Positions 3,359 to 39,653 of a stretch of 39,653 nt of DNA are shown in pieces. The position numbers and the translations under genes are program-made. This DNA comes from a virus. The DNA lies in the UHGV virus genome UHGV-0213571, one strand, 5' to 3'. Below the pieces are notes generated by a model. That model was not told where the DNA came from, ran no database searches, and saw only the letters and a list, made by a program, of their open reading frames with translations. Position 1 is the first letter of the stretch. Each line of letters starts with the position of its first letter.

Positions 3359-3531
3359 GGCGACAGCGACGAAGTATCACCGACATAATCTGTGAAAACT
3401 GCAAATACCTTCCAACGAAACGCTCCAGAAATAAACGCAAGCCAATCCCAAAAGAATCTGACGTAAAAACCTTCAACTACACGGCTCACCTGTGGGATAT
3501 CCGGTGGCTAAGACATCGTGCGAGGAAATGA
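3355..3531 (+). CDS. ninE: NinE-like small protein
   Basis: 58-aa product [40 protein letters not shown]... recognised as lambda NinE-like; AGGAGG RBS upstream; ATGA overlap with upstream stop. Confidence 0.55.
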
Positions 3532-4538: not shown

Positions 4539-4647
4539 CTGCGGTCAGAAGCTGCATGTGCTGGAAGTTCACGTGTGTGAGCACTGCTGCGCAGAACTGA
4601 TGAGCGATCCGAATAGCTCAATGTACGAGGAAGAAGACGATGGCTAA
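4471..4647 (+). CDS. ninF: NinF-like small zinc-binding protein
   Basis: Product ...[46 protein letters not shown]... recognised as lambda NinF-like; GGAGG RBS 6 nt upstream of ATG 4471; overlaps 3' end of the C5-MTase ORF in another frame. Confidence 0.6.
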
Positions 4648-5251
4648 ACCAGCGCGAAGACGATGTAAAAACGATGAATGTCGGGAATGGTTTCACCCTG
4701 CATTCGCTAATCAGTGGTGGTGCTCTCCAGAGTGTGGAACCAAGATAGCACTCGAACGACGAAGTAAAGAACGCGAAAAAGCGGAAAAAGCAGCAGAGAA
4801 GAAACGACGACGAGAGGATCAGAAACAGAAAGATAAACTTAAGATTCGAAAACTCGCCTTAAAGCCCCGCAGTTACTGGATTAAACAAGCCCAACAAGCC
4901 GTAAACGCCTTCATCAGAGAAAGAGACCGCGACTTACCATGTATCTCGTGCGGAACGCTCACGTCTGCTCAGTGGGATGCCGGCCATTACCGGACAACTG
5001 CTGCGGCACCTCAACTCCGATTTGATGAACGCAATATTCACAAGCAATGCGTGGTGTGCAACCAGCACAAAAGCGGAAATCTCGTTCCGTATCGCGTCGA
5101 ACTGATTAGCCGCATCGGGCAGGAAGCAGTAGACGAAATCGAATCAAACCATAACCGCCATCGCTGGACTATCGAAGAGTGCAAGGCGATCAAGGCAGAG
5201 TACCAACAGAAACTCAAAGACCTGCGAAATAGCAGAAGTGAGGCCGCATGA
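4640..5251 (+). CDS. ninG: NinG (Rap) recombination-associated endonuclease
   Basis: 203-aa Cys-rich product recognised as lambda NinG/Rap-like. Confidence 0.8.
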
Positions 5252-24339: not shown

Positions 24340-26316
24340 ATGACAGACATTACAGCCAATGTTGTAGTAAGTATGCCATCGCAACTCTTCACTATGGCTC
24401 GTTCTTTTAAAGCAGTTGCCAATGGCAAAATTTATATCGGTAAAATTGACACTGACCCGGTAAATCCTGAAAACCAGATTCAGGTTTATGTAGAAAACGA
24501 AGATGGTTCTCATGTTCCTGTTTCGCAACCAATAATCATTAACGCTGCTGGTTACCCTGTATATAACGGACAGATTGCCAAATTCGTAACTGTGCAAGGC
24601 CATTCTATGGCTGTATATGATGCATATGGCGTACAGCAATTTTACTATCCAAACGTATTGAAGTATGACCCTGATCAGTTAAGGCAGGAGCTTGAAGGAG
24701 ATAAAGGTTTTTTAATCCCTGGTGGTCAGCAGGAAAGATTTTATGACCTACGCGCATTTGTTGAGCCAGGAGACCCAGCAGCTCCAGACTACACGCAGGC
24801 TTTCAAACGCGCCATCGCCTCTGGTAACGGACGAGTTTTTGTCAACGTTCCAGTGGAATTTACAGAAGATCTGACTATCCCGGCTAAGTTCCGCGTAGAT
24901 ATTGGTGAATGTGGTTATCTGTACACTAACTCAGCAAAAGTACGCATTGAAGGATTTATCAATACTATCGGGGGTAATGATCCGTATCGCGGTTACATCC
25001 ATCCATTTGGCGTTGACTCGTCAACAGTGGCGGGTATTTACACGATGCCTGTAACACTCATGGTTCCGGAAGATTACCGGACCATTCAGGAAGCAATTGA
25101 CGATATCCCAAATAATTATTGGCAGAGAATTATTATCTCAATTGCACCAGGAACTTATGATGAAGACATTGTAATCAGAAGCAAGAGGGGGTGCACACCT
25201 CTATTCCCACCTAGCGCATCGCAACAAGCAAACATAAAAGTAACAAGCAGAACAGGAATATATAGTGATGTGAATGTAAGATCTGCTCAGGTTTTTAATT
25301 GCGGTGGTACACCTTATTCCCCATCTTTTGAACAAATAAACTTCACAAATAGGACCCATTCTGATGAGAATGCATCCGTTGAATTCTATGGCTGCCCTAG
25401 CGGGGCTGTATATGGCTGTGGATTTAAAGGTGTCGGAGTTGAAAAATGTATCGAAGCATACAATAGCATTATTTCATCTGAATCCTGTCACTTCGGAGAT
25501 GAAATAAATGATTATGCTTATGTCGTAAAACATGGCGGGATAATACAAGCAAATAGCACGCAACTTGGTAATCTTCCTGTAACCAGCGGAATACTTAAGA
25601 AGTATATAGCATGGGGTATTGGAGGGCAAATAATTGCCAGCGACTTTAGCCCGCTAATTGGGCTTATGGGGGTATCTATATCTGACGGTGTTAATGCAGG
25701 TTTGATTTATGAAATATCTTCTAAGACTATAACCGGGGTAAACTGGTTTTCAAGAATGGACAACACAAGGTATCACACATTCTTTGAATCATATGATAAG
25801 TTTACTAATTTAACATCACAACCCGCAGACCAGATAACATATTTCCCGGAAAATGGGTTGTATATGCAGGCATCGAGTTCGGGAGTTGTTGAGCATAAAA
25901 TCACAAGGGGACACAGGCTAAGATATAAATTTGAAAACTCAAATTATAGAGCATTCTCTATCGCTCTATCGATAAACTCTGCTGCTACTGGTTTAATAGT
26001 TTCAGGCTCTGTTGATTCAGGTGATTATTTTGGGTTTAGAGTGTTATCTGGAGTTTTGAAAGGGGTTGTGTCTGTCTCAGGAAATGAGACAGTAATAGAT
26101 CTTTCACCCCCTGGGACACGAGCAGCGTACACTGCGAAGTATAGCGGAAGGGGTAATATACAAGGATCTGGAATGATTCAATTTTACAAGGATGATTTGT
26201 TGATAGGGTATATTTCAGGGAAGAAAGTAAATTCTTTCGATTCAACTATATTTGACGCAAGAATAACATCTGGGTCAATAACAATGCATGAATTAGAATT
26301 TGTAAGCAGCAATTAG
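24340..26316 (+). CDS. Tailspike protein: conserved N-terminal head-binding domain plus divergent receptor-binding domain
   Basis: N-terminus [11 protein letters not shown]...[27 protein letters not shown]...[12 protein letters not shown]...VLKYDPDQ matches remembered P22 tailspike head-binding domain; remainder unrelated and visibly AT-rich. Confidence 0.85.
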
Positions 26317-26367: not shown

Positions 26368-27528
26368 TCAGTACACCTCTTTCCACGAATGCTGGAATAT
26401 TGTCTCGTATGGATAGAATAAATCAGGGTGATTATTAAATCCATATATCAGTCTTGAAATTAAATACAAAACAATAACGCTGTAAATTATAAATATTCCA
26501 GCATTCTTCCTAAACCTATAAAGAACAGATGAAACAAGAAATATCTCTGATGCAGAGTAATACATTGCTAATCTGCTAAAAACAGGATGAACAGAATCAA
26601 GCAACATAAACATTATTGAACTAAACGCAAACAGATTAAACATACCTCTTATGGTACGACCTTCATCATCGTTACGCATTCCATAAGTCGCCCATGCAAA
26701 AACAACAACGAATAATATTCTCTTAGCGTATCCTATTGCTCTTCTTACCTCGCTAGGAATCTCACTAAATGCGTTTAAATCTTGAAGAGCTAGATATCTA
26801 GTTATTTTCATGCTAATAAAAGACGGAAGATAACTTGTCATCAAGCCAAGTATATTGGCAGCGCCAAAAAGCATTGATATTATAGCGGCAATGCAAGTTA
26901 TTAATATTATCCTACTAATACTTGATTTCATTTTGAAAATCAAGTAAGCAGGGATAAACACTAACGCTGTTATATGAAAACCGGATGCAACAATAACGCA
27001 AAAGATAAACTTTGCTTTTGATTGTTCATTTTGTGTTATATATCTAAGTGAAAATATCGTTATCGCTATAGCTATTCCTTGCCTGACTGTAAACATATCC
27101 ATTGAATAAAAGGCCATTGATGCCAATATACATATAAGAGGATACCTTGAAATTTTAAAAAATGTTGAATACTTTAACACAACAACTATTGTTGCTATTA
27201 TAAATAGATAAATTGTGTAAGAGTCATATATATATTTTGATATGAAATTAACAAGAAGAAATAATGTCTCATATCCTTGAGACATGAAAATTTCAAAATT
27301 ATCACTATATGAGAATATATTAAGGTATGGCTCCCAGTCAGTACCTGTTCTCCATCTTATTCCGGCAAATATTATTGTTAATATTCCTATAAATGTAGCG
27401 ATTATTTTTTTATACACAATAGGAGTTTTTAATAAATCGCATGTTGCAACAAAAGAAGCAAATAAGAAGAATAAATAGTATATCATATTTATCACGGTTG
27501 TTATTAAGTTGGGTCCGGATTGTACCAC
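26368..27528 (-). CDS. Polytopic membrane protein, putative O-antigen polymerase (Wzy/EpsG family) — candidate serotype-conversion gene
   Basis: 386 aa, about 10 hydrophobic segments, AT-rich; N-terminal R-x-x-TGTDW-x-x-Y motif (IRWRTGTDWEPYLNIF) resembles EpsG/Wzy signature; sits in the tailspike-int conversion slot; alternative start at 27486. Confidence 0.55.
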   Translation of the reverse strand: MVQSGPNLITTVINMIYYLFFLFASFVATCDLLKTPIVYKKIIATFIGILTIIFAGIRWRTGTDWEPYLNIFSYSDNFEIFMSQGYETLFLLVNFISKYIYDSYTIYLFIIATIVVVLKYSTFFKISRYPLICILASMAFYSMDMFTVRQGIAIAITIFSLRYITQNEQSKAKFIFCVIVASGFHITALVFIPAYLIFKMKSSISRIILITCIAAIISMLFGAANILGLMTSYLPSFISMKITRYLALQDLNAFSEIPSEVRRAIGYAKRILFVVVFAWATYGMRNDDEGRTIRGMFNLFAFSSIMFMLLDSVHPVFSRLAMYYSASEIFLVSSVLYRFRKNAGIFIIYSVIVLYLISRLIYGFNNHPDLFYPYETIFQHSWKEVY

Positions 27529-27658: not shown

Positions 27659-28819
27659 TTATTCTTCGCGTTTTTCATCAAGCCAGTCCGCCCACCACTG
27701 CATCATTTCTCTGCGCTTATCTAGATACTGAGCATGGTTGTAAATTCCACGCACAGATCCGCCGTTGGCATGTGCCAGTTGCACTTCAATAGCGTCAGCA
27801 GGCCATTCGTGCTCGTTCATAATCGTGCTGAATTCATGCCTGAATCCGTGACCGCTTTCCAGACCTTCATAGCCGATTTGTTTGATCACAAGTAGCACCG
27901 CGTTCTCGCAGATTGGCTTCTTCTTATCGTTGCGCCCGGCAAAAACAAACTCTGATACTGGTTTAGTGATGGAGCTTAGCGTAGTGAGAAGTTCAACCAC
28001 CTGGTCCGACATCGGAACCACATGAATCTTGCGTCCCTTCATCACACTGGCGTCGATGGTGATAATCCTGTTTTCAAAATCGACGTTCTTCCATAGCATG
28101 GAACGAAGCTCTTTTGTTCTGAGGGCTGTGTAGCGTAAAACTTTGGTCGCAATGAGCGATACGATACTTCCTGAAAATGTTGCCAGTGCTTTGTTGAATG
28201 CCGGGATCTGGTCTGCAGGAAGAAACGGGAAGTTTTTCTTGCGGTATCCCTTCATGGCGTCAGCAAGGTCAGGTGCCGGGTTATATTTAGCCCTACCAGT
28301 GACAATAGCGTAACGGAAAACCTCGCCGCATCTTCTGCGGGCTTTGTTGGCTCGCTCCATTGCCCCGCGATCTTCAAATCTGCGGATTACTTCCAGCAGT
28401 TGCATCGGCTCAATATCTTGAATTTCAATGCCGCCGATGATAGGTAAAATGTCGTCATCAAACATTTTTGCAAGTTCAGTCGCATACCCTACTGACCATA
28501 CTTGCTTCTTGTGCTCGTACCATTCTTTGTAAATCGCAATAAAGGAATTGTTGTTAGACGAAGCCTTTTTCGCCTTTACCGGATCGATGCCAACCGAGAT
28601 GTCTTTCCTCGCAGTCCATGCTTTATCCCTTGCCTCCTGCAAAGTCATAAGCGGATATTTTCCGACAGTCAGGATTTTCTCCTTACCGTCAATCTTGTAG
28701 CGAAGCTGCCATACCTTTTTCCCGGATACAGGGACATAAAGGTACAGGCCATTACCATCGAGAAGGCGGTATGGTTTTTCTTTCGGCTTAGCTGCTTCAA
28801 TCTGCTTAACGGTGAGCAT
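27659..28819 (-). CDS. int: Tyrosine integrase (P4-type, with N-terminal arm-binding domain)
   Basis: N-terminus MLTVKQIEAAKPKEKPYRLLDGNGLYLYV and C-terminal catalytic region (HGFRHEF...GIYNHAQY); ORF track extends to GTG at 28855 but ATG 28819 matches typical N-terminus. Confidence 0.85.
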   Translation of the reverse strand: MLTVKQIEAAKPKEKPYRLLDGNGLYLYVPVSGKKVWQLRYKIDGKEKILTVGKYPLMTLQEARDKAWTARKDISVGIDPVKAKKASSNNNSFIAIYKEWYEHKKQVWSVGYATELAKMFDDDILPIIGGIEIQDIEPMQLLEVIRRFEDRGAMERANKARRRCGEVFRYAIVTGRAKYNPAPDLADAMKGYRKKNFPFLPADQIPAFNKALATFSGSIVSLIATKVLRYTALRTKELRSMLWKNVDFENRIITIDASVMKGRKIHVVPMSDQVVELLTTLSSITKPVSEFVFAGRNDKKKPICENAVLLVIKQIGYEGLESGHGFRHEFSTIMNEHEWPADAIEVQLAHANGGSVRGIYNHAQYLDKRREMMQWWADWLDEKREE

Positions 28820-29074
28820 GGGTAAAAATCCGGTGGGTAAAATTATTTTATCCACTTTTTACCCGTCATGGAGTGCGGCTGTCAACGATCTGACGCGAAC
28901 CATTACGAACTGTGCATCTACAGAAGGCTTGATATTCAGGGGATTTTGCGGACTGGTACGGATGGGAGCGAACTGATAAATGGTGTCCCCTGCAGACATC
29001 TACTTGGCGCGGCAGGGGATTGATTGGAATGATGTTTTTTAGATGTGAAAAATATTTTACCCGCTATTTTACCC
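28820..29074. repeat. Cluster of five 8-mer repeats (GGGTAAAA / TTTTACCC) flanking the candidate att core; candidate Int arm-type binding sites
   Basis: Copies at 28820-28827, 28835-28842 (GGGTAAAA) and 28857-28864, 29055-29062, 29067-29074 (TTTTACCC). Confidence 0.4.
28981..28995 (-). other. Candidate attP core: 15-nt identity to the 3' end of tRNA-Arg(CCU) argW (CTGCAGGGGACACCA incl. CCA) on minus strand
   Basis: Plus-strand TGGTGTCCCCTGCAG is the reverse complement of the remembered argW 3' terminus; located between int and xis with flanking arm-like repeats. Confidence 0.5.
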
Positions 29075-32629: not shown

Positions 32630-33273
32630 TGGTTACCTCCTTTGCGAAGCTCTGCGGCGAACTCGTTAAGTGATATGTAGCAATCTCCAAATGTTAACGA
32701 ACCGCTCGACTGCATATGCTCCATAGCCATCTCCACACCCTGCGCACGTACTTCAGCCAGAAAAGTGTCGGTGGCTGGGGTTTCGATATTAGGTAGAAGC
32801 GCATAATCGCAAATCGTATCGATCGCAGGATCACAACAGTCATCCTCGTTGCGTGGTCGTTCGCCAACCTTCGTTGACGATTGCATGATGATTCCCCAGC
32901 AAATACTATCGACCTCTTCGCTCCATCCATCGCAAGCATCACCGCGATAGTCGTCGATTGCAGCCTCAGCCGATTCGATAGCTTCCTCAGCAGTTTTGTG
33001 CCATTCGAAATTATGCTCAGAGCCATATGAGAAATATGAATGTCCCGCCTTCAGCCCAGCATTCTCCGCTGCCAGCGCCACGCACTTGGCCTCAAGGTTA
33101 TCAATCGTGATTCCAGCAGAACGACACTCCCGCAACGCCGTTTCCAGTTTTGATTCAAGTTCACCGAACTTACGGACAAGATATTCAGCGTTTGTTTCGT
33201 TAACCTTTAAATCACTTGGGATGCATTTACCTTTCAGAAATCCATCCATCTCAATTAGTGTCATTTGTTTCAT
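32626..33273 (-). CDS. Hypothetical protein (Ea-region)
   Basis: ORF track 32626..33291; start [11 protein letters not shown] at 33273 preferred because it is translationally coupled (ATGA) to an upstream small ORF. Confidence 0.5.
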
Positions 33274-33434
33274 TTTTTTCCACTCCGCCACATCGCATTC
33301 AGATATTTGTTTTGATTCACTGATGGAAAAGAATTTCTCTTAAGCAATTCCTCTCTCGATGGCATTGGCTTTACGCGTTGGCGAATAATCATTTCTGCCG
33401 GAAGAATGCCGGGATTGTATGCAAGTCCTCTCAT
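33270..33434 (-). CDS. Small hypothetical protein (about 53 aa), translationally coupled on both sides
   Basis: ATG at 33434 overlaps stop of upstream gene (ATGA); its stop overlaps ATG of downstream gene; below ORF-track size cutoff. Confidence 0.3.
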
Positions 33435-33712
33435 GATTTACTCTCCATGAACTGGTCAATAGCCATGCTAAGTGACATACCTAAAGTTTCGATATGCTGC
33501 TGAATATCCTGTAGCGTCTGCGCCTGAGATAACAGGATTTCACGGTTGCATAACTCTTTAACCAGATGCTCAAACTTGCTGTAATAACCGATACGACTTA
33601 GTGTTTCTTTCCCTGCATTCTCACCTTCTTTGATAATTCCTCTTTCACTAAGAATCAGGTCGTGTTTGGTTCCGGTAATAACGTATTTTCCGAGGTCGAT
33701 GTTTAGCTTCAT
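33431..33712 (-). CDS. Hypothetical protein
   Basis: 93-aa ORF in operon context. Confidence 0.45.
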
Positions 33713-33728
33713 TGTTAATTATTCCATG

Positions 33729-34043
33729 TTAATTTATTCGTATGCCTGCTCTTTCTTCATCGAGTTTTTTTAGCTTGTATCGCATAGCTCTTACTGAATA
33801 AATTGAGCGGCAGGTTGCAATTGCTATTTCTTCTACGGAGAACTTACCGAAAAGTGATACTTCTGCTCTTGTCCAGCGTCTTCCACGAAGTCGGCTAACA
33901 ATGTCAGCGCCAATCCTTGTTGCTTTCGCCATTACTGCTTTTTCAGTCCTTTCCAGTTTTTCAGCAATAACTTCAACTGGCATTGTCGCCGATACTTCGC
34001 GCAAGAAATCGACTTCCCATTTCTCCCATGGAGTCTTTTTCAT
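33729..34043 (-). CDS. Hypothetical basic protein, possible DNA-binding
   Basis: 104 aa, Arg/Lys-rich, helical. Confidence 0.45.
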   Translation of the reverse strand: MKKTPWEKWEVDFLREVSATMPVEVIAEKLERTEKAVMAKATRIGADIVSRLRGRRWTRAEVSLFGKFSVEEIAIATCRSIYSVRAMRYKLKKLDEERAGIRIN

Positions 34044-34054
34044 AGGCGATACCG

Positions 34055-34543
34055 TTATTTGATAAGAAGTGAAGGTTTCCCAACTTTGAGTTGAGCGCCG
34101 GGGATATTTATTCCTGCTTTTAGTTGGTGTTTGATTGCCAGTTTGTCGGCTTTAATTGTCGTTTCAAACTCAACGTATTCAGGAGGAAGGGCGCTTGAGT
34201 CGATGATTTCTACAGTTTCTGACGGTTTGCGGATTGTTACCTGGTGAATACCTGCTCGAATCTTTTTCTTGCCAACCATTTCAAGCGATGACGCTATATA
34301 CGCCATAATGCTGTCAATCTTATTTTGAATTACTGCGGCTCGCTCATTCAGTGACTTTGCCTCTTCCTTGAGGCGTTCGGCATAACCAGATTCATTTTTA
34401 ATGACGGAAAGAAGTTGCTCTATTTTATCGGTAAATTCTCCTTCCATGCCTTCTATTGTGTCAGCAATCATCTCTGGTTCTAAATCTGAATCCATCAATT
34501 TTGCGTACTCATTGGCAATTTCATACAGTTTGCTCACTGGCAA
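34055..34543 (-). CDS. Putative recombination-associated protein (Gp157-like)
   Basis: 162 aa, immediately downstream of and overlapping recT; family assignment from memory only. Confidence 0.4.
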   Translation of the reverse strand: MPVSKLYEIANEYAKLMDSDLEPEMIADTIEGMEGEFTDKIEQLLSVIKNESGYAERLKEEAKSLNERAAVIQNKIDSIMAYIASSLEMVGKKKIRAGIHQVTIRKPSETVEIIDSSALPPEYVEFETTIKADKLAIKHQLKAGINIPGAQLKVGKPSLLIK

Positions 34544-35432
34544 CCTCCAGTTTCGCTTTGCATTCTGCGTAAATGGCTTGTACGTTCTGCTGCAATTTCA
34601 TTCCAGATGTCAGGCGATATGCTTCTGCAAAATATCGCTTCAAATCATCCATGTTTTCTGCCTGAGCCATTTCATCGCAAAGAAGTTGTGCTTTATCCAT
34701 TATTTCCTGCTGGCGTTTCCGTTCATCTTCGCGGATATCTTCCTCTGATTTGTGCGGCATAACTGGTTCAGTCCACACACCTTCTTCTTCGTTTAGTACG
34801 TGAATAGCACTATCAAGACGTGATGCCTTAGGCCAATACTTGCTTGCACGCTTTACGACCGTCTTTCGCGCCATCTCATTCCAGTGATTTACCCATGGTC
34901 CTTTATCGCTGAATGCTGCCTTGCTTGTTTTCCTTACAGCCTCAATTTCAGCCAGACTCATCTCTTCCGTTAGATAATCACCTGCTGGCGTCTTAACTGT
35001 GCAGTAAACGCCAACGATATCACCACGATCACCGAAGGCGTTGTATTTATGGGTTGGTGCTTTATCAAGCCCGTTTGACTCATAGGTATCGTTAGCATGA
35101 ACAAGTTTTGCCTGACCCCATGAGATAACACCAGACTCCATTGCAATATGGAGCAATCCCATATAGCTGATATCAAGGCAAACCATGCCGTCGCGCGGAA
35201 CCAGATAAGCCAGTTTGCTGGCCGGGTTTAAGGTGATGCCGATCGCCGCAACATTGATGATGGCGTTCTGTGCGCTGGTTGGATTTGCCAGTGCCGTTTT
35301 AGCCAGGTAATCGTTTTTCTGGAAATACTGAATTGCAAACTGGCTTTCCTTAGCCCATGTCACCGTCTGTTCAGTCAATGCTCCGCAGAATAACTGCTCT
35401 TGCTGTTTAACGAATTCAACGATATTGCTCAT
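34521..35432 (-). CDS. recT: RecT-family single-strand annealing recombinase
   Basis: Motif GPWVNHWNEMARKTVVKRASKYWP resembles Rac RecT GPWVTHWEEMAKKTAIRRLFKYLP. Confidence 0.8.
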   Translation of the reverse strand: MSNIVEFVKQQEQLFCGALTEQTVTWAKESQFAIQYFQKNDYLAKTALANPTSAQNAIINVAAIGITLNPASKLAYLVPRDGMVCLDISYMGLLHIAMESGVISWGQAKLVHANDTYESNGLDKAPTHKYNAFGDRGDIVGVYCTVKTPAGDYLTEEMSLAEIEAVRKTSKAAFSDKGPWVNHWNEMARKTVVKRASKYWPKASRLDSAIHVLNEEEGVWTEPVMPHKSEEDIREDERKRQQEIMDKAQLLCDEMAQAENMDDLKRYFAEAYRLTSGMKLQQNVQAIYAECKAKLEVASEQTV

Positions 35433-35740
35433 GCAGCTTCTCCATAAATATGTCTGCGTTTGAATATTGCGAAGGCATATTCAGCCTTAACTCTTTCGGT
35501 TATTGCATCCCAGAACCATTCAGCGGCTTTTTCCTGATAGTTACAGTCATCATCTTCCAGCCAGTCGATAGCGTCCTTAGTGTGTTCATCTGGTTTATAT
35601 GAGCGAAGCATTTCGCTTATTGGGTCGCAACGTTTGCAGAGGCGATCAACTTCACTGTTGATTCGTTCGTAATCTTCATCAGTAAAACTTGCGATGATTT
35701 GCGATATTTCACGCTTATCATTCAGAGTCAGAATCATCAT
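35429..35740 (-). CDS. Hypothetical acidic protein upstream of recT
   Basis: 103 aa, acidic; occupies the slot where an exonuclease or anti-RecBCD gene is usually found. Confidence 0.45.
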   Translation of the reverse strand: MMILTLNDKREISQIIASFTDEDYERINSEVDRLCKRCDPISEMLRSYKPDEHTKDAIDWLEDDDCNYQEKAAEWFWDAITERVKAEYAFAIFKRRHIYGEAA

Positions 35741-35827
35741 CTTTCTCCTGTTCTTTGTGCTGATTGAGCATTTTGTTCATCTGACGAATGAATTCTTCGT
35801 CTGACCAGTTATCTGTAAAACTCATGG

Positions 35828-35992
35828 GCGGCCTTGTTGTTTCAAAATATCCCAAAGCTTTTCGAGCAAGCTTTTCATTCTTGGTTGTTTAAAGTCTGCT
35901 CCGGTTAAAATATTTTTTCGTGAATGCTGTACCGATAAAATCGGGTTGAAAGGGCGAACCGATGCCGCCCCTGCAATAGCGAACTGTTGCAT
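35828..35992 (-). CDS. cIII: cIII-like protein (FtsH/HflB inhibitor)
   Basis: 54-aa product MQQFAIAGAASV...LLEKLWDILKQQGRP resembles lambda CIII (MQYAIAG...LIDILNQPG); GGAGCA RBS; below ORF-track cutoff. Confidence 0.5.
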
Positions 35993-36067
35993 AGGATGCT
36001 CCTTCTGTTTGATTGCATAACGAAAACGCCTCGAGTGAAGCGTTATTGGTATGCGGTAAAGCCGCGC

Positions 36068-36379
36068 TTAGGCGGCTGATGTTTCTTCTTTCAGGCTTTC
36101 GAGATATTTACGTGGGTCGTCGTAACATTGGCATTCGCTGTACCAATCCACCCAGCGATCAGTAAGCCCCATCTCTGATAAATCTTCATCGGTAAGGCTC
36201 TCATCCCACATTTCAAGGCCGTTAGCATTGCAGTAATCAGGCTTGATGTTGTTGTCATACTGAAAGGCGTCATAATCAGCCAGTGCGTCCATCAGGCGAA
36301 CACCCTCTTCAACACTTGCCACTTCTACAATGAACGGCTTCATAGGTACTTGCGGGATATGCCAGACACGTAATTTCAT
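36068..36379 (-). CDS. Hypothetical acidic small protein (early-left operon)
   Basis: 103 aa, strongly acidic, RBS CCTCC complement upstream; no recognised domain. Confidence 0.5.
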   Translation of the reverse strand: MKLRVWHIPQVPMKPFIVEVASVEEGVRLMDALADYDAFQYDNNIKPDYCNANGLEMWDESLTDEDLSEMGLTDRWVDWYSECQCYDDPRKYLESLKEETSAA

Positions 36380-36390
36380 ATTTCCTCCGT

Positions 36391-36419
36391 CAAAAAATTG
36401 CCCTCACACTGGAGGGCAA
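36391..36419 (-). terminator. Rho-independent terminator (minus strand), tL-like
   Basis: Minus-strand TTGCCCTC-CAGTGT-GAGGGCAA hairpin followed by TTTTTTG. Confidence 0.55.
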
Positions 36420-36521
36420 AGAAGATTTCCAATAATCAGAACAAGTCGGCTCCTGTTTAGTTACGAGCGACATTGCTCCGTGTATTCACTCGTTGGAATG
36501 AATACACAGTGCTTATTCGTA

Positions 36522-36992
36522 CTAATAAAACACCCAGTTTTCTGTTTCTTGGTTGTGTCCAAAGTTATATTCAATATCTGGTGTTGATGTATCAATATTC
36601 TTCATCCCATCAACAAGAGTTGATACAACAGCCAAATCTTGTTTGATTCTCATTAAATGGTATTTCTTCCGGCGCAATAAACTTTCAATGGCAAGTTTCT
36701 TCGTTGGGAATGCAAAAGATCTTTCTGCATTTTTTGCTACTTTCTTAATTGCATATCTATTTCTCTTTTGTTTCCATTCCTGTAACCACTGATTTGGTGC
36801 TGGTTTAAAATTAACAATCCAATGCGCAGGAACCAACCATGCATAATGCTCTGTCTGATGAAAAGCTATATATTGAAGTGCGAATATTTTGATTCCATCT
36901 TCTTCAACTGTCGCCTGGAATCTCCAGAAAACAGGCATTCCATCATGTTCAGTTTCTGATTCAGGAAAAGGTACGCTCCATGATTTTGTCAT
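36522..36992 (-). CDS. Hypothetical protein, AT-rich moron between N and cIII
   Basis: 156-aa ORF, visibly lower GC than neighbours, followed by 9-bp-stem hairpin (36480-36507) and the terminator. Confidence 0.5.
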   Translation of the reverse strand: MTKSWSVPFPESETEHDGMPVFWRFQATVEEDGIKIFALQYIAFHQTEHYAWLVPAHWIVNFKPAPNQWLQEWKQKRNRYAIKKVAKNAERSFAFPTKKLAIESLLRRKKYHLMRIKQDLAVVSTLVDGMKNIDTSTPDIEYNFGHNQETENWVFY

Positions 36993-37000
36993 ATCTCACC

Positions 37001-37300
37001 TCAAATAAGTGGTTTGCTGCCTAATTTCATTTTCTGGCGACCAACACAAGTCACACCCATTTCACTGCGTGGCTTGCGGTAGTAAATACGGTTCTGTTTA
37101 CACTCGACTTCTTCTGCCTTCTTGCAGCGAAGGCTTCCGAGTGACGCTGCTTTGTCTGCTCTGACGCAACCAGAGAGCTTTAGCGCAATCTTTCGCGCCA
37201 GTCTCTGTTCTTTCATTGCCTGTTCACGTTGAGCCTGTCTTCGTGCTCTGCGGCGATTTCTGGCGTTATCGTCAGCCAGATATGTAATGACTACTGTCAT
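37001..37300 (-). CDS. N: Antitermination protein N (arginine-rich motif type)
   Basis: N-terminal arginine-rich motif (NARNRRRARRQAQREQ) directly downstream of nutL boxA/boxB; first gene of pL operon. Confidence 0.65.
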   Translation of the reverse strand: MTVVITYLADDNARNRRRARRQAQREQAMKEQRLARKIALKLSGCVRADKAASLGSLRCKKAEEVECKQNRIYYRKPRSEMGVTCVGRQKMKLGSKPLI

Positions 37301-37406
37301 GTTGACCTCCGATGATTGACTTTGGCGGTGACGCGCCGGGTGCTTATCTTCCGGTTGCCGTCGTGCAGCTGCACTTCACGTCACCCCAAAGCCAACTACT
37401 CTTTGG

Positions 37407-37448
37407 TTCCCGCATTTCGGCTGGACAATCCCATCAATGTTAAAGAGC
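37407..37448 (-). promoter_or_regulatory. nutL site: boxA (GCTCTTTAACA) and boxB hairpin (CCGAAATGCGGG core)
   Basis: Minus-strand sequence nearly identical to nutR copy at 39078-39122. Confidence 0.55.
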
Positions 37449-37496
37449 CTGCCAATCTGTTCCGTTTGGCTACCAGCGTCCTGCTGATGGCTAAAG

Positions 37497-37581
37497 AATA
37501 CTGTAGGTATTTTATTGTGTAAATACCCAAGGTATTTATTTTTGATGAAATAATGATAAACAAATGAATACAAAGGATATT
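37497..37581. promoter_or_regulatory. OL operator cluster with overlapping pL: three 15-bp sites of form AATAC-N5-GTATT (37497-37511, 37522-37536, 37567-37581, the last with ATATT half-site)
   Basis: Inverted-repeat half-sites seen directly; same motif recurs in OR. Confidence 0.55.
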
Positions 37582-37667
37582 TATTTTTTCGGTGTCTGCT
37601 TGTTCAGTGCTTTTTATGCGGGATATGTGAAGTGGATCCCGATAGCTATTGCTGCCGGGATTATGGG

Positions 37668-38057
37668 TTAGTCAGCGAAGGTTAAGACGAGAATTACCTT
37701 AATGATGTCTGCTACAACAGACACGGCCATAGATAAACCAAAGACGATCCAAGCCATAGAGATGTCTTCACTACCATCGTATAGAGTTCCGTAATCACTG
37801 GTGTAAGGCGTAAATGTCGCGCCTTGATACAATAGGTATAAGCTTGAACCATAGAGGATAAATGCAGATATCCCTTGTATTGCTATGATCACTAGAATCA
37901 TGAAACGAGCTGATCTATGCGCCCAAGCCTGGCTTATTTTTTCTGATAGAGATTTCGCAATAAAAGCATGCGCTAAGCCGTAAATTGTCGAGATTGCCAA
38001 CATCCCAAAAAAGCTTGCTATAGCGGTTCCAACCATAATCGCCCCTTGCGTGATCAA
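37668..38057 (-). CDS. Small polytopic membrane protein co-transcribed with cI (rex-position); candidate superinfection-exclusion / abortive-infection factor
   Basis: 129 aa with about 4 hydrophobic segments; ATGA start-stop overlap with cI. Confidence 0.55.
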   Translation of the reverse strand: MITQGAIMVGTAIASFFGMLAISTIYGLAHAFIAKSLSEKISQAWAHRSARFMILVIIAIQGISAFILYGSSLYLLYQGATFTPYTSDYGTLYDGSEDISMAWIVFGLSMAVSVVADIIKVILVLTFAD

Positions 38058-38770
38058 ACCAGCCTTAGTTTTGTCTCAATTGCAACGCCTATAATCTTGC
38101 AGTTTCCATTGATTGGCACGAGAGGCCATGCAGGATTAAGTCCCTTGAGGTATTTATTTCCGCCGTCGATTATCAGCTTCTTGAATGTTGCTTCGTTAGA
38201 GTCAGAAAGTTTTGCTATGACCAAGCTGCCGTTGATCGCCTCCCTTCCGGTATCGAAAAGAACGAATGTTCCCTCTGGAATGCTTAACCCAACCGGTGCC
38301 GTCATTGAATCACCTTCCACTTTAAGCCAAAACGCATTACCTTGAATATGCGCGTCAGACTCAAGCCAAACATCTATGTCTTTAATGGTGTATGGTTCGC
38401 ATGCTTCACACCACGAGCCAGCCTGGATACTGCTTAACACCGGATACCTCTTTCCTGCTCTGTATTCCCCTGCATACCTTACGTTGGCATCGCTCTTAAG
38501 GCTTTCTGCCTGTTCTGCAACCTTGGCAGCAATTGACTGGCTAAAATCAGCAATTGAGACTTGCAACAATCGTGCAAAACCAGATGCAACCTCAACGTTT
38601 AGCGCGTTTCTGCCATTAAGATAATGCCCTACCGCTCCTTGGGTGATACCCAGTTCATCAGCGATTGAGTATTGGGTTATTCCCAATTCTTTCTTTTTTG
38701 ACTCATACAAAGCCTTAAGCCGCTTAGCGTCTTCGAGCTGTTCTGTCGTCAGTGATTTTTTATTTTCCAT
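38054..38770 (-). CDS. cI: CI repressor (HTH + LexA-like S24 autopeptidase domain)
   Basis: 238 aa; N-terminus LTTEQLEDAKRLKALYESKKKELG and C-terminal FWLKVEGDSMTAP...TFKKLI closely parallel lambda CI; different recognition-helix region. Confidence 0.9.
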   Translation of the reverse strand: MENKKSLTTEQLEDAKRLKALYESKKKELGITQYSIADELGITQGAVGHYLNGRNALNVEVASGFARLLQVSIADFSQSIAAKVAEQAESLKSDANVRYAGEYRAGKRYPVLSSIQAGSWCEACEPYTIKDIDVWLESDAHIQGNAFWLKVEGDSMTAPVGLSIPEGTFVLFDTGREAINGSLVIAKLSDSNEATFKKLIIDGGNKYLKGLNPAWPLVPINGNCKIIGVAIETKLRLV

Positions 38771-38805
38771 AGCTTAATTCTAATAGCTAAGGTACTTAAA
38801 CTAAA

Positions 38806-38847
38806 AATACCCTGAGTATTGATTGCTTTGAATACCTGTAGTATTCT
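38806..38847. promoter_or_regulatory. OR operators (AATACCCTGAGTATT 38806-38820; AATACCTGTAGTATT 38831-38845) with candidate pR (-35 TTGATT 38819-38824, -10 TATTCT 38842-38847)
   Basis: Same AATAC-N5-GTATT motif as OL; located between divergent cI and cro. Confidence 0.55.
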
Positions 38848-38876
38848 TTGTTCATGGTTAATAACGGAGAGTGCAT

Positions 38877-39071
38877 ATGATTCGAATGACACTTGCCGAT
38901 TACGCCAAAATCCATGGACAGGCTAAAGCAGCCAGTGACTTTGGTGTAATCCAGTGCGCTATCAGCAAGGCCATTCTGGCAGGCCGTAACATCATGGTTA
39001 CGGTAAAGCCTGATGGCAGTGTGATTGGAGAGGAAGTTCGTCCTTTCCCAAGCAACAAGAAAAACAAATAG
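38877..39071 (+). CDS. cro: Cro repressor
   Basis: Product ...[58 protein letters not shown] parallels lambda Cro; GGAGA RBS. Confidence 0.8.
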
Positions 39072-39077
39072 TAACAC

Positions 39078-39122
39078 CGCTCTTTAACAGTCATGGTCCT
39101 CATTCCCGCCGAAATGCGGGAA
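39078..39122 (+). promoter_or_regulatory. nutR site: boxA CGCTCTTTAACA (39078-39089) and boxB hairpin TTCCCGC-CGAAAT-GCGGGAA (39103-39122)
   Basis: Perfect 7-bp stem boxB downstream of boxA-like sequence, immediately after cro. Confidence 0.6.
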
Positions 39123-39179
39123 TACAACGCGCATAAGTAGATGCGCATAACTTCTTATTTGTTAAGGAAATACTTACAT

Positions 39180-39473
39180 ATGGTTCGTGCAAACAAACGC
39201 AACGAGGCTCTAAGAATCGAGAGTGCGTTGCTTAACAAAATCGCAATGCTTGGAACTGAGAAGACAGCGGAAGCTGTGGGAGTTGATAAGTCGCAGATCA
39301 GCAGGTGGAAGAGGGATTGGATTCCAAAGTTCTCAATGCTGCTTGCTGTTCTTGAATGGGGCGTCGTCGACGACGATATGGCTCGATTGGCACGACAAGT
39401 TGCTTCGATTCTCACCAATAAAAAACGCCCGGAGGCAACCGAGCGTTCTGAACAAATCCAGATGGAATTCTGA
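39180..39473 (+). CDS. cII: CII transcriptional activator
   Basis: Product MVRANKRNEALRIESALLNKIAMLGTEKTAEAVGVDKSQISRWKRDWIPKF... near-identical to remembered lambda CII; AAGGA RBS. Confidence 0.85.
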   Translation: MVRANKRNEALRIESALLNKIAMLGTEKTAEAVGVDKSQISRWKRDWIPKFSMLLAVLEWGVVDDDMARLARQVASILTNKKRPEATERSEQIQMEF

Positions 39474-39505
39474 GGTCATTACTGGATCAATCCACAGGAG
39501 TAATT

Positions 39506-39653
39506 ATGACAAAACGTCGTAAGAAATACCAGGAAAAAGAAGAGATTCGACACCCTGATTCACCTGAGGGATTAGTGGTAGCCGCAGCAAATAACAGGGC
39601 GTTCGCAGAGCGCCTTGTTGGTGTTTACAGACTAGCCAAAGCAGGAGTGAAAC
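39506..39653 (+). CDS. 5' end of an O-like replication initiator gene, truncated by window end
   Basis: ORF begins about 33 bp after cII with GGAG RBS, the lambda cII-O spacing; only 49 codons visible. Confidence 0.4.
   Translation, partial: MTKRRKKYQEKEEIRHPDSPEGLVVAAANNRAFAERLVGVYRLAKAGVK

Follow-up and report, generated by a model that had tools for sequence, protein, structure and literature searches.

In phage lambda, the region between ral and ea10 encodes LPR1, renamed PreS (10.1101/2024.10.31.621285). According to this 2024 bioRxiv preprint, PreS is an Hfq-bound RNA of ~88 nt, with a processed form of ~68 nt, whose 3' end is the terminator tL2a. Produced during the lytic cycle, it stimulates translation of dnaN and represses alaS, and phage yield fell two- to four-fold when it was deleted (10.1101/2024.10.31.621285). 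The intergenic block between the two genes comprises lambda positions 33925-34045. The same block lies 3' of ral in phi21, where a terminator is annotated, and 3' of gene 34 in Sf6 (AF547987), where it is annotated as 'terminator, homology to phage lambda; tL2A' and as 'bsq4; boundary sequence'. In the Sf6 annotation the block, common to mosaic lambdoid genomes with unrelated flanks, figures as a recombination boundary; it has since been found to encode a functional sRNA, which could by itself account for its conservation.

The interval between N and this block differs between phages, and is where lambdoid phages keep host-interaction genes. It holds an annotated sieB ORF, orf28 and ral in lambda, and ral in phi21. 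In Sf6, ral is found there together with other unrelated genes, and therefore the position of a gene in this slot does not predict its function. The genes ral and sieB/esc of lambda, and ral, sieB and gene 17 of P22, are non-essential accessory genes of the variable N-cIII interval of the pL operon. Another class of accessory gene, the moron, is an extra gene with its own promoter and terminator that is expressed from the prophage, as described in the comparative genomics of HK97 and HK022.

The window analysed here is a stretch of 39,653 nt (UHGV virus genome UHGV-0213571). Its right end carries, on the minus strand, the immunity and early-left genes of a P22-like lambdoid phage (Table 1). 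A 156-aa open reading frame, ORF156, has N as its upstream neighbour and is separated by a 142-nt intergenic region from a homologue of P22 gene 17. A sequence-only reading of this region had described ORF156 as an AT-rich moron with its own hairpins, placed between N and cIII in the slot that holds sieB and ral in other phages. The placement agrees with the gene coordinates, and the slot is indeed the one occupied by sieB and ral in lambda and by ral in phi21. An exclusion or anti-restriction role, which that reading called plausible, is neither backed nor contradicted by the results; no match to Ral, SieB or a PADLOC defence model was obtained. ORF156 resembles those lambda and P22 genes as a non-essential type of accessory gene in a variable interval, but it has no sequence or fold similarity to Ral, SieB or Esc, and their functions are not implied.

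Table 1. Coordinates of genes and RNA elements in the early-left region of the window.
Feature	Positions	Strand	Evidence or remark
cI	38054-38770	minus	
129-aa membrane protein	37668-38057	minus	phrog_6534
N antiterminator, phi21-type C-terminus	37001-37300	minus	phrog_271 (E 3e-36); weak match to PF25694
Shine-Dalgarno sequence of ORF156, GAGGTGAG	36995-37002	minus	read from sequence
ORF156, 156 aa, pI 9.05	36522-36992	minus	ORF call, ATG start; phrog_1636
Hairpin, 14 bp, CAAC loop	36478-36511	minus	RNA fold; begins 10 nt past the ORF156 stop
PreS (LPR1), Hfq-dependent sRNA, 87 nt	36392-36478 (36478->36392)	minus	86/87 identity to lambda 34011->33925
tL2a intrinsic terminator	36392-36419	minus	terminator scan; 8-bp stem 36398-36419, U-run 36392-36397 (TTTTTT)
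P22 gene 17 homologue	36068-36379	minus	PF17420 (E 7e-56); phrog_1510; first gene downstream of tL2a
cIII-like ORF	35822-35992	minus	
RecT	34521-35432	minus	

By sequence identity, the RNA structures 3' of ORF156 are the conserved lambda tL2a terminator and PreS, both already published. The 121-bp block that spans hairpin and terminator is identical to lambda 33925-34045 at all but one position (120/121, 99.2%), and the intergenic segment alone, used as a query, matched 327 phage records. The 151-nt stretch from 36380 to 36530, which is the 142-nt intergenic region with a few flanking bases, folds at -52.1 kcal/mol, compared with -32.3 +/- 3.8 kcal/mol for its shuffles (z = -5.2; 0 of 200 fold as well). 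The 9-bp-stem hairpin reported earlier at 36480-36507 was recovered as the core of a longer stem of 14 pairs, two of which are G-U, and a rho-independent terminator near 36391-36419 was recovered as well. The assignment of these hairpins to ORF156 as its own was not borne out, given that they belong to the lambdoid block, which has ral on its 5' side in lambda and phi21, and gene 34 in Sf6.

The start of the PreS cloning primer, GAGCAATGTCGCTCGTAACT, and the northern probes P843 and P922 are all exact matches to the window, which places PreS at the coordinates given in Table 1. The PreS seed, TGTTCTGATTATTGG, is intact at about 36427-36443, and the sole mismatch to lambda is an A for G at position 80, with extra pairs at the base of the terminator stem. 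PreS lies ~520 nt downstream of the N stop on the same strand, with no terminator-like site between them. PreS is recognized here by sequence identity that includes the seed, by a GC-rich stem with a poly-U end, and by its position in the pL operon on the strand of N. The Rfam scan (E <= 1) of 35500-38200 did not return the PreS family, and gave just two chance matches to eukaryotic snoRNA/scaRNA families. In an alignment of six phages, the sequence is essentially unchanged over a block of ~115 bp that runs from GCACTGTGTATTC to the U-run, and is unrelated on either side of it. The tL2a/PreS block is nearly invariant in lambda, phi21, Sf6, HK97 and 933W, whatever the neighbouring genes; the hairpin is invariant in lambda, Sf6, HK97 and 933W, and has one loop change in phi21.

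The locus therefore shares with lambda an identical seed, the same strand, the operon position downstream of N and the same upstream 14-bp hairpin, whereas ORF156 replaces ral on the upstream side and the gene 17 homologue replaces ea10 on the downstream side. The RNA part is one more copy of a published sRNA and terminator, and nothing new. The last paired base of the hairpin is the 5' nucleotide of the cloned LPR1/PreS, and the homology arm of the lambda deletion primer P969 ends at the 14-bp hairpin. The hairpin probably marks the PreS processing boundary and would protect the 3' end of the upstream N-ORF156 message; given a stem of 14 bp, it is unlikely to be an RNase III site. PreS is here effectively the 3' UTR of the N-ORF156 message, and should need no N to be made.

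The arrangement of ORF156 in the operon was analysed with a scan of the minus strand, 35700-38200, for promoter and terminator consensus sequences, which a weak or unusual promoter inside N could escape. The scan gave promoter-like sites only at 37523 and 35819, and terminator-like sites only at 36419 and 36044. No sigma-70-like site was found in 36993-37494 by this consensus scan, which could miss weak promoters, and by the same scan there is no promoter-like site between pL and ORF156 and no terminator-like site between pL and tL2a. The junction of the two genes reads CCA CTT ATT TGA GGTGAGAT ATG on the minus strand, such that the Shine-Dalgarno GAGG shares bases with the N stop codon, TGA (37001-37003), and is separated from the ATG by 6 nt. 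Phage Huey has this same junction, and in an unrelated metagenomic contig, with a junction of similar type, a GAGG overlaps the TGA stop of an N-like gene just 2 nt before the ATG. Because the Shine-Dalgarno sequence overlaps the N stop and no promoter of its own was detected, ORF156 is most likely co-transcribed with N from pL. Together with the lack of a terminator-like site before tL2a in the scan, this suggests that ORF156 would be made along with N, with no need for antitermination, and would be silent in the lysogen. A further terminator-like hairpin lies just 3' of the gene 17 homologue (36025-36044, minus strand), and a convergent one is found on the opposite strand (36060-36077, plus strand).

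The AT-richness of ORF156 relative to the flanking early genes, noted by eye, is confirmed by quantitative comparison. ORF156 has a GC content of 36.1% and a GC3 of 28.7%, compared with 48.7% and 44.0% for N, 46.8% and 49.0% for the gene 17 homologue, and a GC content of 47.5% for the whole window. This places it at the 3.7th percentile of all 471-nt windows, and at the 1.3rd percentile (z = -2.5) within the early region, 33000-39653. The only comparably AT-rich 471-nt stretch elsewhere in the window is in a membrane-protein gene near 26.0-27.8 kb. The GC minimum of the window (26-28%) is at 26368-27528 on the minus strand and encodes a polytopic membrane protein of 386 aa, located between a tailspike-like gene (24340-26316) and the integrase gene (27659-28855). 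The tailspike-integrase interval is the usual site of O-antigen modification morons in P22-like phages.

The term moron thus applies to ORF156 in part. Like the classical lambdoid morons, such as HK97 gp15 and lambda bor and lom, ORF156 is of foreign composition and is patchily present in otherwise similar phages, and composition and presence/absence pattern do mark it as an acquired accessory gene. In contrast to them, it sits within the repressed early-left operon, with neither a promoter nor a terminator that is its own. The consensus scan gave no promoter-like site between pL and the gene, the Shine-Dalgarno sequence overlaps the N stop, and tL2a, the shared operon terminator, is also found in phages that lack ORF156; the strict sense of the term is therefore not supported.

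On the evidence of codon positions, ORF156 is a real gene under purifying selection. Comparisons with homologues of 58-72% amino acid identity give 31/27/84, 48/28/94 and 40/29/80 differing sites at codon positions 1/2/3. The ORF156 protein matches phrog_1636 over residues 1-156 of the 156-position profile (E 5.4e-112). By tblastn, it is 100% identical to an unannotated ORF of H-19B, 99.4% identical to L0079 of 933W-type Stx phages and 98.7% identical to HK97 gp45, and in H-19B, 933W and HK97 the gene directly follows N, as it does here. ORF156 DNA is present in 598 of 5426 complete E. coli genomes (~11%), always annotated as 'hypothetical protein'. No study of the protein was found in a literature search for L0079, HK97 gp45, phrog_1636 and the protein accessions. 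Sf6 gene 34, which is of similar size and occupies the same slot, was considered as a homologue and rejected (hhalign probability 0.1%).

ORF156 is found behind several different N alleles. In 933W and HK97, and not in the window, ~55-58 nt between their own H-19B-type N stop and the ATG of the ORF are the 3' end of the phi21-type N of this window; these relics, at ~4602-4660 of 933W (L001) and ~3443-3500 of HK97 (L007), are identical to 36993-37050. The relic looks like a recombination scar where the ORF156 cassette joined, which bounds the cassette by N 3' sequence on one side and the PreS block on the other. Among 75 viral contigs with a near-identical copy of ORF156 and enough downstream sequence, the hairpin and PreS follow the gene at a constant distance in ~61. 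Another ~11 (L019, L046, L053, L075, L077 and others) have no PreS block, and ORF156 is followed by the terminator GCCGCATAGTCGGCC with a T-run and then by an unrelated small gene; three keep the hairpin and the 5' part of PreS but have a different terminator. In two IMG/VR contigs, L041 and L042, that retain the hairpin and the start of PreS, the tL2a stem within ~150 nt past the ORF156 stop is replaced by GCCGCTCTATATGGGCGGC with a T-run, and in L041 the PreS seed region is also changed. These PreS variants may be sRNA alleles with altered targets.

Homologues of 55-85% identity occur in Pectobacterium, Brenneria, Cronobacter, Rosenbergiella and Salmonella phages. A 63%-identical homologue in a Pectobacterium odoriferum prophage (L003 3955-4545) lies between two terminator-like hairpins just upstream of xis/int and away from N, an arrangement that looks more moron-like. 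One distant homologue adjoins an N-like gene and is directly followed by a different terminator; another, also moron-like, is a lone opposite-strand gene among structural genes; and on one contig the homologue is at the end of a replication/recombination module. Distant homologues often open an early operon or stand second in it, or they belong to arrays of small early genes, and no recurrent partner gene was found in their neighbourhoods. In Pseudomonas phage Medea1 (L097 1-4420), a distant homologue ends an early operon that opens with genes for adenine- and cytosine-specific DNA methyltransferases, near the integrase gene.

A profile search of 1.84 billion representative proteins yielded 87 relatives of ORF156, mostly of 130-170 aa, which also match phrog_13631 and phrog_25384, both PHROGs of unassigned function. 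An AF2 model built on a diverse alignment (pLDDT 95, pTM 0.81) has a three-stranded beta-sheet (strands 19-30, 33-46 and 50-55), two short helices, a short strand at 83-86, and a 33-residue helix (98-130) followed by a conserved tail, FGHNxETExW, that is modelled at high confidence and probably packs on the domain. Residues 74-118 include 16 Lys/Arg but only 2 Asp/Glu. The positions conserved throughout the superfamily are G33, T47, K87, A101 and a basic helix of the type RKxxQxxHLKR, with no catalytic-looking constellation among them.

The earlier statement that the protein has no recognizable domain stands. Searches of Pfam, NCBIfam and PADLOC gave no match beyond a chance Cas1_II in PADLOC (E 0.01), and no family of Ral or SieB type, or other named family, was matched in Pfam (E <= 0.1), PHROGs, NCBIfam or PADLOC. 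No family recurred when 33 diverse members of the family were run against Pfam (E <= 1), and searches of PDB sequences yielded chance matches only, whether the query was the protein alone or a profile. Foldseek against BFVD found 14 proteins at E <= 1e-3, all uncharacterized phage proteins, from phages of Erwinia, Achromobacter, Delftia, Rhizobium, Sinorhizobium, Tenacibaculum and Cellulophaga; several of these phages we take to be virulent (N4-like or Vi1-like). The modelled fold is novel, without a solved relative.

The reading that we favour, with moderate confidence, combines the conserved tL2a/PreS block with an independent foreign accessory gene, ORF156, for a small nucleic-acid-binding protein of early lytic growth. 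Leftward transcription from pL would pass N and then ORF156, and would end at tL2a or, once N is made, read on into the gene 17 homologue, cIII and recT. The last 87 nt of the terminated transcript, with the U-run as its end, would be PreS, and the 14-bp hairpin at the PreS 5' end would, after processing, cap and stabilize the 3' end of the N-ORF156 mRNA. ORF156 would fill the N-PreS interval that is filled elsewhere by ral, sieB or unrelated genes, and its product would bind nucleic acid early in lytic growth, to act on a host or phage nucleic-acid process in counter-defence or host takeover. That the product is a basic, nucleic-acid-binding early accessory protein is a best guess of low confidence, as the basic patch could serve in protein binding or plain folding instead. 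A bolder version of this reading is possible, and is put forward tentatively: ORF156 would be the founder of a phage-wide family with a new fold, an immediate-early effector made with N before antitermination, that binds host nucleic acid or a nucleic-acid enzyme to disarm defence or redirect the host.

Narrower roles can be weighed against the same evidence. ORF156 takes the place of ral in the exact N-to-tL2a interval, its expression is predicted to be N-independent, and it recurs as a single accessory gene in unrelated phages, often first in an early operon, and downstream of two DNA methyltransferase genes in Medea1. These points would suit an anti-restriction or counter-defence protein that is made before the N-dependent genes, as T7 Ocr is the first gene expressed, and that replaces Ral functionally. 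This role is nonetheless rather unlikely, in that the protein is not similar to Ral, Ocr, ArdA or other families modelled in Pfam, a basic protein of pI 9.05 is unlikely to be a DNA mimic, and, as the Sf6 slot with ral and unrelated genes demonstrates, position is no guide to function. The family-wide basic core (K87, the R-F/Y-A-F strand and the RKxxQxxHLKR helix), the proximity to N and PreS, and the one homologue at the end of a replication/recombination module would instead be expected of a protein that binds DNA or RNA to regulate the development of the phage itself, for example transcription, recombination or PreS/Hfq function. However, ORF156 is absent, with no evident compensation, from lambda, phi21, Sf6 and many more lambdoid phages, ~15% of near-identical copies are away from PreS, and the gene pairs with several N types and so is not tied to one antitermination specificity, making such a regulator very improbable.

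The remaining alternative is that ORF156 is a true moron or defence gene, expressed from the prophage to exclude superinfecting phages in the manner of lambda SieB and Rex or HK97 gp15. We do not think that this is the case, and regard it as unlikely. The foreign composition speaks for it, as do the presence of sieB in the same slot of lambda and the distant homologues that stand free between terminator-like hairpins or on the strand opposite to their neighbours. In the window, however, the absence of an upstream promoter-like site, the overlap of the Shine-Dalgarno sequence with the N stop and the shared terminator all speak against expression from the prophage. Apart from the spurious Cas1 match, PADLOC gives no support for a defence function, and, unlike SieB, the protein shows no evident transmembrane segment, in either sequence or model. 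In addition, the presence of structural relatives in phages that are presumably virulent makes a role confined to the prophage state less likely.

The preferred reading, an early lytic accessory protein, makes ORF156 a clean experimental target, as a single small gene present in about a ninth of complete E. coli genomes and found in HK97 as well as in 933W and H-19B, which are clinically important Stx phages. To know what it does would close one of the last gaps in the early-left operon of lambdoid phages, and, should the immediate-early effector reading be true, ORF156 would represent an unexamined function carried by most Stx phages. A candidate for a prophage-expressed gene is found nearby: the start of the gene for the 129-aa membrane protein (phrog_6534) overlaps the cI stop, at the place where lambda has rexAB and 933W has stk.
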